Shown here piece by piece: positions 1,261 through 7,944 of a stretch of DNA of 14,389 nt. Position 1 is the first letter of the stretch. Each line of letters opens with the position of its first letter. Made by a program: the position numbers and the translations under genes. This DNA comes from Sulfurimonadaceae bacterium (lineage in GTDB: Bacteria > Campylobacterota > Campylobacteria > Campylobacterales > Sulfurimonadaceae): positions 1-14,389 of the forward strand of contig JBFEXS010000055.1 in NCBI GenBank assembly GCA_041562555.1, in the 5' to 3' direction. The notes under the pieces are model-generated. The model saw nothing but the letters and a program-made list of their open reading frames with translations, had not been told where the DNA came from and made no database searches.

Positions 1261-1629
1261 ATGATGAAGAATATGTTTGAGGCAGTTCGGGAAAAGTTTA
1301 TTGACTTGAATACATTTTTGAGTGAATTGGATTTTGATGAAGATTTGAAAGAACCTTCGATTATGGAAAGTCTGAATGACAAGCTTTCGAATGCCTATAT
1401 CTCCCTTAACCAGGGGTTCTGTGAAAATGCGCAGATGTGTGAAGAATGTGTCGATAATCGTGATCAGCTCGGGGCACTGAGCAGTATGATCGATAGTTGT
1501 GAATCAGGGCAGAAGCTTAGTGAAGAGGCGTATACTGCCCTGTCGTCGTTTGCAGAGAATATTCCGGAAATGTTGACGAAGATGGAATTTATCTATTTAG
1601 AGCTTATCAAGAACCGCGAAGAGGTGTAA
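1261..1629 (+). CDS. Hypothetical acidic alpha-helical protein with C-x5-C-x2-C-x16-C motif (paralog 1)
   Basis: 122-aa ORF with AAGG RBS (start may be 1264). Aligns without gaps to the 1698/1704 ORF at ~32% identity, which supports coding status. No family recognised. Confidence 0.85.
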   Translation: MMKNMFEAVREKFIDLNTFLSELDFDEDLKEPSIMESLNDKLSNAYISLNQGFCENAQMCEECVDNRDQLGALSSMIDSCESGQKLSEEAYTALSSFAENIPEMLTKMEFIYLELIKNREEV

Positions 1630-1663
1630 ACGATTTTTTAACGCAAAATTAACACGCATTTTA

Positions 1664-1669
1664 TATAAT
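1664..1669 (+). promoter_or_regulatory. Putative sigma70 -10 box (TATAAT) for paralog 2
   Basis: Perfect TATAAT in the 1630-1697 gap, preceded by periodic T/A tracts typical of Campylobacterota promoters. Confidence 0.6.
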
Positions 1670-1703
1670 TCCTTATGAAGCTACAATGTAGAATGGGGTG
1701 ATT

Positions 1704-2063
1704 ATGGATATTTTCGCGGAAGTTCAAGAGAACTTTATGGAATTGGGGATACTGCTAAGTGGATATGACTTGGATAAGGACCTTGAAAAAGAAGAAGTCC
1801 TGGCGACGATCGAAGATGCCTTGAAAGAAGCGAATAAAAGCTTTGAAAAAGGATTGTGCGATAAAGCGTACATGTGTTCAAAATGTACTCAGACCGGCGA
1901 AGAACTCCACCGGTTGGTTGCGTTGATAGACAGCTGTGTTAAAGATAAGAGAATCAATGCGGAAGCCAAGGTCGCATTGATCGAGTTTACCTATAAGATC
2001 CCTGCCATTCTGTCTGAACTTAAAAACGTGTATCTAGAGAGTCTTAGCAAAAGAGCTGTCTAA
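1704..2063 (+). CDS. Hypothetical alpha-helical protein with C-x5-C-x2-C-x16-C motif (paralog 2)
   Basis: The ORF track starts at GTG 1698. ATG 1704 is preferred because GGGGTGAT (1695-1702) looks like an SD. Collinear paralog of 1261..1629. Confidence 0.85.
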   Translation: MDIFAEVQENFMELGILLSGYDLDKDLEKEEVLATIEDALKEANKSFEKGLCDKAYMCSKCTQTGEELHRLVALIDSCVKDKRINAEAKVALIEFTYKIPAILSELKNVYLESLSKRAV

Positions 2064-2082
2064 GTACGCATCTACCCACTTT

Positions 2083-2113
2083 TATAATATTTTTACCCCT
2101 TCTTAGCTATAAT
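2083..2113 (+). promoter_or_regulatory. alaS promoter region with two TATAAT boxes (2083-2088 and 2108-2113)
   Basis: Two perfect TATAAT hexamers in the intergenic gap. The second has the gnTATAAT context and lies 73 nt before the alaS ATG. AGGA RBS at 2176-2179. Confidence 0.6.
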
Positions 2114-2186
2114 CGCGTACTTTTTTAACATAAAACTCCACGATGGGTTTTGACAAGAGTTAAATCTATATTCATAGGAAACAAGA

Positions 2187-4739
2187 ATGGACGTTCGTAA
2201 AGCGTTTTTAGACTATTTTGAATCAAAAGGGCATGCTAAAATCGCCTCTGCACCTTTGGTGCCCGATGATGCGACACTACTGTTTAATAATGCAGGTATG
2301 GTGCCTTTTAAATCAATATTCACGGGTGAGGTTCCTGTTCCGGAGAATCCCAGAGCGACGTCATGCCAGACTTGTTTGCGTGCAGGTGGAAAACATAACG
2401 ACCTTGAGAATGTCGGACATACTGCAAGACACCATACATTTTTTGAGATGTTGGGGAATTTCTCGTTTGGTGACTACTTCAAAGAAGAAGCGATCGCTTA
2501 TGCCTGGGAATTTATCACAGAACATCTTGAATTACCGATCGACAAGCTTTGGGTCACTGTACATGAGAGTGATGATGAAGCAGAAGAATTATGGAAAAAA
2601 CATGTAGCGCCTGATCGTATCATGCGTCTAGGTGATGCAGACAACTTCTGGTCGATGGGAGATACGGGCCCATGTGGTCCATGTTCGGAGATCTTCTATG
2701 ATCAGGGTGAAGAACATTTCAACGGGCCTGAAGACAAGATGGGCGGCGATGGTGATCGCTTTTTGGAGATCTGGAACCTGGTTTTCATGCAGTACGAGGT
2801 TAAAGTCAAGGGGGGTGAGCGAATCCCTTTAGCGAAACCGTCTATCGATACAGGTATGGGGCTTGAGCGTGTGACTGCGATCAAAGAGGGCGTACTTTCA
2901 AATTATGATTCATCCATGTTCATGCCGATGATCCGTAAAGTCGAAGAGCTTACAGGTAAAACGTATGAGTATGCATCGGGAGCATCGTATCGTGTCATCG
3001 CTGATCATATCCGTACGGCAGTATTCCTACTCTCCCAAGACATCAACTTCTCTAACGAGGGACGCGGATATGTATTACGCCGTATCCTGCGCCGAGCGGT
3101 ACGTCACGGATATTTGCTGGGTCTGCGTGAAGCCTTTATGTACAAGATTGTTGATATTCTTGTGGATCAGATGAAAGAGGTCTACCCATATCTGGAGAAA
3201 AAAGCCGAAACGGTCAAAACTCAGGTGCAGCTTGAAGAAGAGCGCTTTTTCAAGACGATCGCATCCGGGATCGAACTTTTCAATGCTGAACTTGAGAATA
3301 CCAAGGATGTCTTTTCCGGTGAAGTGGCTTTTAAACTTTATGATACCTTTGGATTCCCGTTGGATCTGACGGAAGATATGCTTAAGGGTGAAAACCTTAG
3401 ATTGGATTCGGCGAAGTTCGATGAACTTATGAATGAGCAGCGTACTCGTGCTAAAGCTGCATGGAAAGGTTCAGGAGACGAGGCGAACGAGGGGGACTTT
3501 AAAGCCCTTCTTGAAAAGTTCGGTCAAAATGAGTTTACAGGATATGAGTCAACGGCCAATGAAGCCACGATTCAAGCGCTTTTGAGTGAAGACTTTAAGA
3601 TCGTTGATGAACTTCATGCAAGCCAAAAAGGGTGGGTACTTCTGGATAAGACGCCATTCTATGCCGAGTCCGGTGGTCAGGTCGGAGATATCGGTCAATT
3701 GGATAATCGTGCGACGGTAACAGATACACGCAAGTTTTTTGATCTAAATCTCTCCCATGTGGAAGTAAAAGAGACGATCTCAGCCAATGAAAAAGTCAAA
3801 GCAGTCGTAGATATCAACCGTCTGGAAGTGGAAAAGCACCACTCAGCGACCCACCTTCTGCATGCTGCTTTGTATGATATTCTTGGGGATCATATCTCTC
3901 AAGCGGGTTCATCCAATGATGCACGACGTCTGCGTTTTGATTTCTCACATCCTAAGGCGATGACAGCAGCAGAGATCGCAGAGGTAGAAGAACAGGTGAA
4001 CTATCAGATACTTCGCGGTATCTCAGGTCAGACAAAAGAGATGAGTATTGATGAAGCAAAAAGCTCTGGGGCAAAGGCGCAATTCGGAGAGAAATACGGA
4101 GATACGGTCCGTGTTGTCAGCTTCGGTGATGCCAGTGTTGAACTTTGTGGGGGAACACACGTCAGTAATACGGCAGTGATAGGTACTTTTGCCATCGTCA
4201 AAGAGTCAGGTGTGTCTGCCGGTGTACGCCGTATTGAAGCTGTCTGTGGAAATGCAGCGTATAATCTTTTCAAAGAGCAGCGTCATACATTGCTAAAGGT
4301 AGAAGAAGAGGTGAAAAACCGGGATGTGCTTACGGGTATCAATAAACTCAAAGAGCAGATCAAAACACTGAAACAGGAAGTACAAGAGGCGATGTCCGCT
4401 TCCAAAGAGGAGCTTGGGGCAGAATCGGTCAACGGGGTAAGTGTGATCGTAGAAGAGATCAAGTCAGGCGATGTGAAGACGCGTATCGATGAGCTGAAAA
4501 ACGAGCATGAGAAAGTCTGTGCAATGCTCTTCCAGATCAAGGGTGACAAAGTGATGATCGCAGCAGGTGTCAAAGGTGCTGATGCAAAAGCGGGTGATTG
4601 GATCAAGCAGATCGCACCGATTTTGGGCGGAGGCGGGGGCGGCCGTCCTGACTTTGCACAAGCAGGTGGAAAAGACCCGTCTAAAATAGATGAGGCAAAA
4701 AATGCTTCACTGGATTACATTAAAGGAGTATTGGCATAA
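2187..4739 (+). CDS. alaS: Alanine--tRNA ligase
   Basis: 850 aa. Motifs [60 protein letters not shown], editing-domain HHSATHLLH and ELCGGTH, C-terminal [15 protein letters not shown]. Confidence 0.99.
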
Positions 4740-5275
4740 TGAAGCAGGCTATGACAGACTTGTTCTGGGCGTACCCGGAACTGATCGTATTTTTACATGT
4801 TATCTCAGCAGTCGTCTGGGTGGGCGGAATGATCGTGATGCGTTTTGCAGCGCACCACTCTTTCGCACAGATCGATGATCCACGCTTGAAACTCCAGCGT
4901 ATTGCCCATGCATTGAAACGCCTGTTTTATATCGTCATTCCATTTGTGACGATTCTTATTATTACGGCGGTACTGATGGCAGTTGGCTGGGACTTTAGAA
5001 ATGCCGCGGTAGATGCAAACTCCAATGTCATCGATGAACACGCGATGTATATCTACAATCTTGTACATGTCAAAGAAGTTTTATGGATGCTTATGGCGAT
5101 GAACCTTGGTCTGATGATGTGGTTACGTGCAAAGGCTGAAAAATTAACGGCAGAAGACAATCTGAGAGATGCACAAAAGCGTCTTGGATTGATCGGTAAA
5201 TACCTTGTACCACTTAATATCCTTATGGGAATCGCAGCAATCTACCTAGGCGTCATACTTCGCTATTCTCATTAA
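4739..5275 (+). CDS. 4-TM membrane protein, HemJ/CopD-like superfamily (paralog A)
   Basis: TAATG overlap with the alaS stop and AAGGAG RBS (4723-4728). Four hydrophobic segments, LHVISAVVWVGG in TM1 and HVK before TM3. The family assignment is by eye. Confidence 0.8.
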   Translation: MKQAMTDLFWAYPELIVFLHVISAVVWVGGMIVMRFAAHHSFAQIDDPRLKLQRIAHALKRLFYIVIPFVTILIITAVLMAVGWDFRNAAVDANSNVIDEHAMYIYNLVHVKEVLWMLMAMNLGLMMWLRAKAEKLTAEDNLRDAQKRLGLIGKYLVPLNILMGIAAIYLGVILRYSH

Positions 5276-5279
5276 AACA

Positions 5280-5312
5280 GTCACCTTCCCTACTATAAGG
5301 TAAGGTGATTTT
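5280..5312 (+). terminator. Probable intrinsic terminator after alaS-paralog A
   Basis: TCACCTT (5281-5287) pairs with AAGGTGA (5302-5308), extended by CCT/AGG around a 6-nt loop and followed by TTTT. Starts 5 nt after the stop codon. Confidence 0.6.
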
Positions 5313-5385
5313 CCATTATAAAAAAAACGAATTGTTTATACGCTTTCTATCACATTTATGACACTAAAATTACAAAATAAAAACT

Positions 5386-5411
5386 TATAATACTAGATTA
5401 AGTGGCACTTA
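5386..5411 (+). promoter_or_regulatory. -10 box (TATAAT 5386-5391) plus operator-like palindrome TAAGTG-G-CACTTA (5399-5411)
   Basis: Perfect TATAAT after periodic A-tracts. A perfect 6-1-6 inverted repeat lies at the expected transcription start. Confidence 0.55.
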
Positions 5412-5451
5412 GTTACTATCTCAAGGAAGTATATTGCCAAGGGAAGTTTTA

Positions 5452-5991
5452 ATGAGTGATACCATCTATTATTTGATGACAAATTTTACAAATCAGATCG
5501 TTTTTTTACATGTGTTTTCTGCCGTTATCTGGGTGGGGAGTATGGTCTCTGCACGTTACGGAAGGGTCAAGCCGCTTAATTCCTTGACAGAGCCTGAAGA
5601 GTATATCTTCGAGACAAAACGTTATACGCGTTTTTTTAAGATGATGACACCTTTTATCGTTATCTTGTTTATCACTTCGATTATCATGGCGATGAGTTTT
5701 CATGACAATGCCTATGACGAAGATGGGTTTATTCTTTCGCAAAGTGCCGTGGAGCTTTTAAAAATGATCCATACAAAAGGTGGTATCTGGACAGTCATGA
5801 CCATGAATATGGGACTGATGGCGTGGATCAACTGGAAGGCCTCTAAAAGTTTTGTCTCCTGTTCGAACGTCAAAGAGTGCAAACGCTGTAAAGAAGCACT
5901 TGAGATCATCTATAATTATCTTATGCCGGCAAATATCATCATGGGTACGATCGAGATCATGTTAGGAGTCGTACTGCGTCACGCGTATTAA
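5452..5991 (+). CDS. 4-TM membrane protein, HemJ/CopD-like superfamily (paralog B), with a C-x5-C-x2-C loop
   Basis: Paralog of 4739..5275 (IVFLHVxSAVxWVG, HxK, MNxGLMxW, YLxPxNIxMG, LGVxLR). ATG 5452 is preferred over TTG 5434 because it gives the same 15-residue N-terminus before IVFLH as paralog A and has AAGGGAAG upstream. Confidence 0.82.
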   Translation: MSDTIYYLMTNFTNQIVFLHVFSAVIWVGSMVSARYGRVKPLNSLTEPEEYIFETKRYTRFFKMMTPFIVILFITSIIMAMSFHDNAYDEDGFILSQSAVELLKMIHTKGGIWTVMTMNMGLMAWINWKASKSFVSCSNVKECKRCKEALEIIYNYLMPANIIMGTIEIMLGVVLRHAY

Positions 5992-6007
5992 GTCATTTTA
6001 AAATAGG

Positions 6008-6013
6008 TATAAT
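6008..6013 (+). promoter_or_regulatory. -10 box (TATAAT) 6 nt upstream of the maf ATG, probable leaderless promoter
   Basis: ggTATAATacacctATG, with no SD between the box and the start codon. Confidence 0.6.
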
Positions 6014-6019
6014 ACACCT

Positions 6020-6580
6020 ATGAAAAAAGAGACGATACGTTTATGTTCCCAATCCCCCAGCAGAGCGCTGCTCTTATCAAGGGCAGGTGTTGATTTCATT
6101 CAATCCCCTGTTGATTTTCCCGAAGATGCCATTGTCGCGACTTCTCCCAAAAACTTTGTGTATCAGGCTACTCTTGGAAAATATCAGACAGCTTTAAAAC
6201 TATATGATTATAAACAGATGCCAATCTTATGTGCAGATACGGTTGTCACTTCGCAAGACAAGATATTGCGAAAAGCAAAAGATGTGGAAGACGCACGAAG
6301 GATTCTTTTACGTCAAAGTGGACATGTCACTTCTATTGTCTCTTGCATGATCTATAAGTCTGAATCACTGGAACTGATAGATATCTCCACCACGGATTAT
6401 CTTTTTGATGCGTTTGATAAAGAGGATCTAGAAGCTTACCTGGCTTCGGGCGAGTGGCAAGGCAAGGCCGGTGCCTGTATGGTCGAGGGTTTTTGTAAAC
6501 CCTATATCAAAGAGGTCAAAGGCTACGAGTCCTGTGCTATGGGTTTGAGTGTTGAAAAACTACTGCCTTGGATTGAATAG
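6020..6580 (+). CDS. maf: Maf family nucleoside triphosphate pyrophosphatase
   Basis: N-terminal LCSQSPSR (variant of LASxSPRR), ADTVV, LRKAKD and GEWQGKAGA motifs. 186 aa. Confidence 0.95.
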   Translation: MKKETIRLCSQSPSRALLLSRAGVDFIQSPVDFPEDAIVATSPKNFVYQATLGKYQTALKLYDYKQMPILCADTVVTSQDKILRKAKDVEDARRILLRQSGHVTSIVSCMIYKSESLELIDISTTDYLFDAFDKEDLEAYLASGEWQGKAGACMVEGFCKPYIKEVKGYESCAMGLSVEKLLPWIE

Positions 6581-6616: not shown

Positions 6617-7531
6617 ATGGAAGCTGTTTCTGCCATTGGTATTGCCATTGTCGTGGCTGTGTTGATTATTATTGTCAAGGGGATTAAGATCGTTCCTCAG
6701 TCCCATGCCTATGTCATCGAGCGATTGGGAAAATATAATTCGACCCTTGAGGGTGGATTCCATGTCATCATCCCCATTATTGATTCTGTTGCAATGGCGG
6801 TAACAAAGCAGGAACAGATCATTGATATTCCTCAACAATCGGTCATTACCAAGGATAATGTCAATATCTCTGTCGACGGTCTGGTCTTTATTCAGGTGGA
6901 GAATGCCAAGATGGCTGCCTACGGTGTAGTGGACTTTAAACGGGCAATTGCCAACCTCGCGACGACTTCTTTGCGGGCGGAGATCGGTCAGTTGGCTTTG
7001 GATGAGACGCTCTCATCCCGTGATACACTCAATAGAAGTATCTTAAGTGCTTTGGACGAGGCCTCTCAAAAGTGGGGTATCAAGACTATGCGCGTTGAGC
7101 TGAGAGATATCTCGGTACCCCAGGAAATCGAAGAGGCGATGAACCTTCAGATGAAGGCGGAACGGGAAAAACGTGCGATCGAGTTGAATGCAACGGCAAA
7201 AAAAGAGGCGGTAATCCGTGAGGCAGAAGGTGCTAGACAAAAAGCTTTTCTCGAAGCAGAAGCGATAGAGCGCATGGCTGATGCACAGAAATATGAACAG
7301 GAAGCTACAGCAGAGGGACAGGCCAAGGGTATGATGTTGATCAATCAGGCGATGGCGACCAACCCTGAGGCGGCGGAATTCTTACTTGCAAAAGATCGCA
7401 TTGCCGCTTTTAATGCGATGGCGAAAAACGATTCGAACGATAAGGTGATCGTTCCTTACGAGGCTACCGAGTTCGTCGGTTCGCTTTCGATCCTAAAAGA
7501 GTTCTTGGGATCTAAGAAGGCGGAGGCATAA
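6617..7531 (+). CDS. SPFH/band-7 (QmcA/paraslipin-like) membrane protein
   Basis: N-terminal TM anchor, VIERLGKY, PQQSVITKDNV, LDETLSSRD, WGIK, QMKAEREKRA coiled coil. Confidence 0.95.
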   Translation: MEAVSAIGIAIVVAVLIIIVKGIKIVPQSHAYVIERLGKYNSTLEGGFHVIIPIIDSVAMAVTKQEQIIDIPQQSVITKDNVNISVDGLVFIQVENAKMAAYGVVDFKRAIANLATTSLRAEIGQLALDETLSSRDTLNRSILSALDEASQKWGIKTMRVELRDISVPQEIEEAMNLQMKAEREKRAIELNATAKKEAVIREAEGARQKAFLEAEAIERMADAQKYEQEATAEGQAKGMMLINQAMATNPEAAEFLLAKDRIAAFNAMAKNDSNDKVIVPYEATEFVGSLSILKEFLGSKKAEA

Positions 7532-7944
7532 TGGAAGTCATTGAGTGGTATTACCTTTTGGCCATCGGTATTGTGATGATCGGTCTTGAAGCGCTGATCT
7601 TCTCATTTTTTCTGGTATGGCTTGGCGTAGGATTTATTGTTGTAGCCGGTCTGAGTTACATGGGAGTATATGAAAACGGTATTGCACAGTTGGCCTCGGC
7701 TGTCTCTGTAGGATTGGTGTTGGTCTTTATATTGCGTAAATGGAGTATGGGTATGCTTAATAAAACGCAGGATGACACTGAAGAGAAGATCCACCGTGCA
7801 GGCATCGGTACGATCGACAACGGAATGATCCGAATGGATGGTACCTATTGGCAAAGCGATGACGATCTGAGTATATACAAGGATGGAGACAAGGTCAATG
7901 TCGTTGATATTGTAAACAATAAGGCAGTTCTTGCGACGGAATAG
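7531..7944 (+). CDS. Short NfeD family (YbbJ-like) membrane protein
   Basis: TAATG overlap with the SPFH gene. N-terminal TM helices and a C-terminal OB-fold-like G.IRMDGTYW...GDKVNVV segment. NfeD genes are habitual SPFH neighbours. Confidence 0.88.
   Translation: MEVIEWYYLLAIGIVMIGLEALIFSFFLVWLGVGFIVVAGLSYMGVYENGIAQLASAVSVGLVLVFILRKWSMGMLNKTQDDTEEKIHRAGIGTIDNGMIRMDGTYWQSDDDLSIYKDGDKVNVVDIVNNKAVLATE

Follow-up and report, generated by a model that had tools for sequence, protein, structure and literature searches.

Introduction

Three families of small membrane proteins, DUF2269, CopD and HemJ, provide the closest described counterparts to one half of the locus considered here, a group of genes around alaS in a 14,389-nucleotide stretch of DNA from a Sulfurimonadaceae bacterium (contig JBFEXS010000055.1, hereafter the window). 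HemJ is reportedly a b-type heme protein, and we know of no described member of the three families with a three-cysteine loop on the cytoplasmic side. DUF2269 is termed a membrane domain of unknown function (PMC4562309). Precedents for the cysteines come from elsewhere: in the membrane protein RseC, three closely spaced cytoplasmic cysteines form an O2-sensitive iron-sulfur (Fe-S) cluster (PMC11729352), and CX5CX2C is given as the leading spacing of [2Fe-2S] ferredoxins (PMC8928951). In the window, alaS is flanked by two pairs of paralogous genes, namely S1 and S2 upstream, which encode small soluble proteins of what we call the S family, and M-A and M-B downstream, which encode membrane proteins of the M family. 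S1, S2 and M-B each carry the motif C-x5-C-x2-C (Cys3), and by analogy with RseC and the ferredoxins it is plausible that these cysteines bind a metal or an Fe-S cluster.

A preliminary description of this DNA had proposed that the soluble proteins and M-B form one joint system. The comparisons reported here favor a different view: S and M-B are probably two unrelated families, each with its own conserved cytoplasmic Cys3 site of like spacing, and do not constitute a dedicated pair. On this view, what looks like a module of four genes came about by chance, from two old duplications together with a short motif that arose by convergence. The features on which the argument rests are the following.

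1261..1629, + strand: S1, a soluble protein of 122 amino acids (aa), predicted four-helix bundle, S family, S1 type (open reading frame (ORF); AlphaFold2)
1420..1449, + strand: S1 motif CENAQMCEEC, C54-x5-C60-x2-C63 (codons 54-63), in the turn between helices 2 and 3 (translation, alignment, model)
1698..2063, + strand: S2, 121 aa from GTG, paralog of S1, S2 type (ORF, pairwise comparison, tree)
1857..1886, + strand: S2 motif CDKAYMCSKC, C-x5-C-x2-C (translation, alignment)
2187..4739, + strand: alaS, alanyl-tRNA synthetase, 850 aa, between the S pair and the M pair (ORF)
4739..5275, + strand: M-A, 178 aa, a membrane protein with four helices whose DUF2269/CopD/HemJ-like family extends across Campylobacterales (ORF, relatives, alignment)
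5434..5991, + strand: M-B, probably 179 aa from ATG 5452, a genus-specific diverged M-A paralog (comparison, AlphaFold2)
5860..5889, + strand: M-B motif CSNVKECKRC, C137-x5-C143-x2-C146 (179-aa numbering), in the predicted cytoplasmic turn between helices 3 and 4 (alignment, model)

Results

S and M-B Occur Independently across Genomes

In a profile search of 151 Sulfurimonadaceae genomes, S was found in 57, distributed over 10 of 23 genera, and M-B in 15, all of them in the genus of the window (g1). M-B was called at an expect value (E) ≤ 1e-40, a threshold clearly apart from the M-A cross-hits at roughly 1e-30. The joint counts over the 151 genomes were these.

S present: M-B present in 10 genomes, M-B absent from 47
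S absent: M-B present in 5 genomes, M-B absent from 89

The five genomes in which the profile search found M-B without S are G001, G007, G008, G009 and G012, with completeness of 84, 95, 76, 89 and 99%, respectively. In four of them the gap between dedA and alaS measures 146-234 bp and is too short for an S gene. The genome G002, which is 100% complete, has S together with M-A only. The preliminary description had set independent phyletic distributions beforehand as an outcome that refutes a joint system, and independence is what this sample displays. Because S and M-B occur independently across genomes, they probably represent two separate metal or redox sites. Co-folding of M-B with S1 gave a score of 0.00 against a mark of 0.32; the run was made without controls, and this value counts neither for nor against binding. 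As a separate observation, the dedA-alaS gap of G001 holds, in place of S, an unrelated ORF that may reach 164 aa and includes hydrophobic stretches (L023:5939-6433, - strand).

A Conserved Three-Cysteine Site in the S Family

Translation bore out all three motifs at the places where they had first been noticed, as well as the paralogy of both pairs: S1 and S2 are 34% identical (E 2e-27), as are M-A and M-B (E 7e-35). S2 and M-B show no similarity to each other (E 1.8), in line with their having been called otherwise unrelated. None of the four proteins has a match of meaningful score in Pfam or NCBIfam, so that the earlier label of a candidate undescribed module is supported as far as these families go. 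S1 and S2 were likewise rightly described as soluble and signal-less, since they contain neither a signal peptide nor a hydrophobic segment.

A profile of S1 and S2, searched against 1.84 billion representatives, retrieved 25 proteins, 22 of which contain the motif; the others are one member with a Cys-to-Ser change, one fragment and one unrelated, marginal match of 1332 aa. When 201 genomes sampled from the order were searched, S turned up, apart from the window's own genome, in a single other family only, where 2 of 14 genomes have it. Members of the S family have about 115-120 aa. In an alignment of 23 rows with 22-43% overall identity, C54 and C63 are present in 23/23 and C60 in 22/23, and the consensus leading into the motif reads xxYxxxNxGxCE. 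A Met preceding the second Cys is mostly conserved (consensus MCxxC), and an extra cysteine, C80, occurs in some members and is missing in many.

The AlphaFold2 model of S1, computed with the family alignment, is a four-helix bundle (helices 2-22, 32-53, 61-83 and 88-121; mean predicted local distance difference test score (pLDDT) 87.8). Within this model helix 2 closes with the first Cys, helix 3 is capped by the second, and its first turn contains the third. C80 follows C63 by about 16-17 residues and would lie at the far end of helix 3, some 25 Å away by helix geometry, and it should therefore not share the site of the motif cysteines in a monomer. Searches for S relatives of known structure or wider distribution were unproductive: Foldseek against the PDB returned generic or designed four-helix bundles and none at E ≤ 0.001, the S profile matched PDB sequences with nothing below E 0.04, a word-based protein search with S2 recovered S2 itself and no other protein, and an atlas search with S1 reached a best score of 0.76, which is uninformative.

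M-B Is a Diverged, Genus-Specific Paralog of M-A

M-type genes are widespread. The order with an M-type gene between alaS and maf is kept across Campylobacterales, as seen in the window (2187-6580) and at loci L023-L038, L053, L056 and L059, and 918 relatives of M-A were found. A search with M-B gave 48 matches, and every one with a source name comes from Sulfurimonas; the database names of relatives assign the contig to that genus. The motif is present in 45/48 of these matches and in 45/46 full-length M-B orthologs, so that the conservation of the three cysteines anticipated by the preliminary description is upheld; the matches without it are P0019 (Arg at the first Cys), P0047 (a 142-aa fragment) and P0049 (an M-A-type protein). 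It is found in none of the 120 M-A-type proteins listed, each of which has 0-1 Cys, and in the S-bearing genomes of other genera the M-A-type proteins are Cys-free. M-B has exactly three Cys, those of the motif, as had been stated.

In its AlphaFold2 model M-B forms four long helices (2-36, 48-87, 97-136 and 144-176; mean pLDDT 86.0), and residues 137-143 make up the turn between helices 3 and 4. A hand count of Lys and Arg within the helix limits of the model gave 7 in loop 1 and 6 in loop 3, and 0 at the N-terminus, 2 in loop 2 (together with 5 acidic residues) and 1 at the C-terminus. With about 13 on loops 1 and 3 versus about 3 elsewhere, loops 1 and 3, and hence the Cys3 turn, are predicted to be cytoplasmic, in agreement with the earlier placement, by the positive-inside rule, of the loop between transmembrane helices (TM) 3 and 4. 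In the two predicted structures the motifs of S and M-B occupy a like helix-turn-helix cap.

Alignment of 32 M-family rows shows how M-B departs from M-A. Eleven residues are invariant (H20, W27, G29, M31, K109, W113, M116, P159, N161, G165 and G172). Two residues are each present in 20/21 M-A-type rows and in 0/11 M-B rows: a His where TM1 reaches the cytoplasmic side, aligned to V39 of M-B, and a Glu after the His-x-Lys of TM3, aligned to G110. C137 lies within a 4-residue insertion of M-B relative to M-A, and C143 and C146 stand where hydrophobic or Ala positions were. As an observation in its own right, the widespread alaS-linked CopD/DUF2269-like M protein has invariant His, Met, Lys and Asn.

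Comparison with Described Families

The M family resembles DUF2269, CopD and HemJ in size (about 160-180 aa), in having four long helices and in the invariant His-x6-Trp-x-Gly of TM1. The TM1 His and Trp-x-Gly typical of the HemJ/CopD-like superfamily are present in all 32 rows (H20, W27, G29), but M-A and M-B fall far below every gathering score. Against DUF2269 (PF10027; cut-off 28 bits), M-A scored 12.8 bits and M-B gave no match; a distant M-family member, L038, passes at 30.1 bits and others score 20-22 bits. The best M-family scores for CopD (PF05425; cut-off 32.1 bits) and HemJ/UPF0093 (PF03653; cut-off 34.2 bits) were 25.8 and 24.6 bits, respectively. Of 32 M-family members, 18 matched DUF2269, 18 CopD and 5 HemJ/UPF0093 at E ≤ 1. 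With one protein passing the DUF2269 cut-off and the rest below it, we place the kinship of the M family at the level of the superfamily. Consistently, CopD/DUF4149-like clusters are the nearest atlas neighbors of the M family. The genome separately encodes a genuine HemJ (contig C17, 179.6 bits), to which the M profile aligned in hhalign at E 0.016 over TM1-TM2 only. Foldseek of M-B against the PDB and a wide VIA-align search yielded generic or designed four-helix bundles, none at E ≤ 0.001, and the M profile found nothing below E 0.04 among PDB sequences. A limited literature search turned up no work joining HemJ, CopD and DUF2269, and nothing related for Sulfurimonas combined with 'copper resistance protein D'. 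The preliminary description had considered M-B a possible heme-binding protein. The sole basis of this idea is the invariant His of TM1, which the M family has in common with the HemJ/CopD-like superfamily. The second His (H107) is replaced in 5/21 M-A-type rows.

For the cysteines, M-B is like RseC/RnfF, a membrane protein whose three Cys lie close together on the cytoplasmic side (PMC11729352). The RseC motif, however, is CX2CX5C, on the N-terminal domain of a two-TM protein; S and M-B lack any Pfam or NCBIfam match that would assign them to RseC/MucC, and the architecture of M-B differs. S and M-B share the spacing of the first three ligands of [2Fe-2S] ferredoxins (PMC8928951). The CX5CX2CXnC signature requires a fourth Cys 27-82 residues on, and [2Fe-2S] ferredoxins more generally have CX4-5CX2CX22-82C in a beta-grasp fold, whereas the fourth Cys of S (C80) is not conserved and lies about 16-17 residues on, S is all-helical, and M-B has three Cys only; no ferredoxin family of Pfam matched. 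The CxxC of S at a helix N-terminus, with its mostly conserved preceding Met, recalls the M-x-C-x-x-C copper sites of CopZ/Atx1, but the S fold is unlike the ferredoxin-like HMA domain and gives no match to its profile. The ZAS domain of zinc-binding anti-sigma factors is also a small helical bundle. Its motif, however, is H-x3-C-x2-C, and S has no profile match: zf-HC2 was not matched at E ≤ 1 by the window proteins or at E ≤ 0.1 by 23 S members, and the neighbors of S in the window are dedA and alaS.

Origin of the Shared Spacing

How might two unrelated proteins have come to carry the same spacing? C-x5-C-x2-C is rare, being present in 9 of 2079 crude ORF-derived genes of the window's own genome, and three of these nine lie here. 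Since S1 and S2 trace back to one paralogous event, the true coincidence is that one unrelated neighbor has the same spacing. With about 6 neighboring genes, the chance of this is roughly 1-2%, an estimate made after the fact. The preliminary description had also pointed to a likeness in the residues leading into the motif (ANKSF.. in S2, ASKSF.. in M-B). This does not hold up as a shared feature: it is specific to S2, missing from the S family consensus and not seen at the DNA level. The corresponding KASKSF of M-B descends from a KAEKLF stretch of the M family, and when the motif-region DNA of S2 and M-B was aligned, it did no better than 24% of 69-mers taken at random from the window. Recent DNA exchange with S as the source of the M-B motif was considered and rejected, because the similarity of the motif DNA does not go beyond random.

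Discussion

In our reading, M-B arose by duplication of the alaS-linked M-A gene, a duplication confined to one genus. It lost the Glu after the His-x-Lys of TM3 and the His with which TM1 meets the cytoplasm, and gained a Cys3 turn between TM3 and TM4. The new cysteines would replace the ancestral cytoplasmic His as the inner-face ligand set of a membrane protein that handles a metal or cofactor. Each Cys3 turn, in S as in M-B, probably either serves as a thiol switch or binds an oxygen-labile Fe-S cluster or a thiophilic metal ion, be it Cu(I) or Zn. Judging from conserved residues, Cu(I) would also be compatible with the mostly conserved Met before the second Cys of S and with the conserved His and Met of the M family. 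Should the Cys3 sites turn out to bind metal or Fe-S, no CopD/DUF2269-like protein before M-B would have had its cytoplasmic ligand set defined, and M-B would offer a way to learn what the members of this large, uncharacterised superfamily move or sense; S would add a new small metalloprotein family to the sulfur-oxidising Campylobacterota. The present result is mainly corrective.

Several observations weigh against two separate cysteine sites of this kind. Within g1, S is present in 10 of the 15 M-B genomes, and three of nine motif genes within 4.7 kb are unlikely by chance. At least five genera have S and an M-family gene together in one murG-dedA-S-alaS-M-maf cluster, which may reflect a loose functional tie. 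TM3 of M-B is moderately hydrophobic and was missed by a crude hydropathy scan, so that the four-TM topology leans on the model and on family resemblance. Finally, the chemistry of the Cys3 sites is read from cysteine conservation and geometry.

Alternatively, the cysteines may be structural zinc staples or thiol-disulfide switches that stabilise or gate helical hairpins, with no transfer of a cofactor, and S may be a small redox- or zinc-dependent regulator comparable to the zinc-binding anti-sigma factors. We regard this as rather unlikely. A CxxC at a helix N-terminus with a third ligand nearby on a four-helix bundle recalls zinc or redox-switch sites such as those of ZAS proteins of the RsrA type; S genes stand alone in changing neighborhoods, as is often the case for regulators or stress proteins, and several genomes have two copies. 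On the other hand, there are three conserved ligands only, no zf-HC2 or other regulator family was matched at the thresholds given above, and no sigma factor gene lies by S in the window or among 45 neighboring ORFs (8 of 20 loci, E ≤ 1e-8).

The original proposal, whereby a metal or an Fe-S cluster is passed or sensed by S1 and S2, as soluble carriers, jointly with M-B, now appears quite improbable. Motif spacing and helix-turn-helix placement are alike in S and M-B, both sites are predicted to be cytoplasmic, the genes cluster around alaS here and in 9 other g1 genomes, and the motif is rare. These points have to be set against the 47 of 57 S-bearing genomes that lack M-B, the 5 of 15 M-B genomes that lack S, the genus g7, where S stays by dedA while alaS and M are elsewhere, and the run-up likeness, which is confined to S2 and absent from the DNA.

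A broader version, which we deem highly doubtful, would have the S family form a new metalloprotein class, small four-helix bundles with a Cys3 site for Cu(I) or labile Fe-S. Such proteins would service CopD-like membrane proteins generally, M-A via its His on the cytoplasmic side and M-B, in one genus, via a matching Cys3 relay; the module would then be real but looser and older than first proposed. The recurrence of murG-dedA-S-alaS-M-maf in at least five genera hints in this direction, as does the DUF4149 membrane protein found two genes away from a second S copy in genus g33. That the motif is meaningless in at least one family, for example as a lineage-specific quirk, is very improbable: the motif is short, and the M-B ortholog P0019 and the S member P0058 each lack one Cys, but the residues around the cysteines vary and the cysteines themselves persist, at overall identities of 64-91% for M-B and 22-43% for S.

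Gene Neighborhoods and Duplication History

S occupies at least five different gene neighborhoods, which vary between genera.

murG-dedA-S-alaS-M-maf: genera g1, g9, g26, g28 and g32 (dedA 2.7 kb upstream in g32)
murG-dedA-S without alaS: g7, 3/3 loci (alaS and M elsewhere)
Aldo-keto reductase, DUF234 and a J-domain protein beside S: g33
HycI beside S: two g6 genomes
ABC ATPase, DUF4149, J-domain protein and ftsZ beside the second S copy: g33

The DUF4149 protein beside the g33 copy was tried as an M relative and rejected, having one Cys, no motif and an hhalign E of 0.33 against the M profile. In the two g6 genomes, S directly adjoins the HycI-type hydrogenase maturation protease in two different orientations (L055:4062-5011, L060:3388-4425). 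In g33, J-domain (DnaJ) proteins lie within one or two genes of S in two contexts (L050, L052, L057, L062, L064); they are of two forms, one of 262-273 aa with a C-terminal J domain and one of 96 aa.

In a tree, the S proteins of g1 separate into a clade of the S2 type, with support of 100/99, and a group of the S1 type. Eleven g1 genomes bear S; the one studied here has both types and the others have one or the other. This suggests that the S1 and S2 types are like alternative forms at one locus, arising from an old duplication with reciprocal loss or from lateral acquisition. With S1 and S2 together in this genome only, the two 'duplicated pairs' would be old events with different histories.

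Other Features of the Window

The locus is bounded by the following genes, and every gene from murG to maf is on the + strand.

3-593, + strand: 3' end of murG (ORF list)
594-1205, + strand: dedA, a DedA/UptA-like VTT-domain protein (Pfam VTT E 4e-21; NCBIfam UptA E 2e-36, below cut-off)
6020-6580, + strand: maf (ORF list)

The database entry of S2 has 119 aa, and its start is probably ATG 1704. The stop codon of alaS and the start codon of M-A overlap (TAATG), and at 15 of 16 related loci the product of the syntenic gene is 67-92% identical to AlaS. An Rfam scan of the window gave no match, and a promoter and terminator scan of it gave counts no higher than the shuffled level. Farther downstream, at window positions 6617-7944, two successive ORFs overlap by 1 base, first a stomatin/HflC-like one of 304 aa and then a small membrane one of 137 aa that resembles an NfeD partner, both named by reading of their sequences alone.

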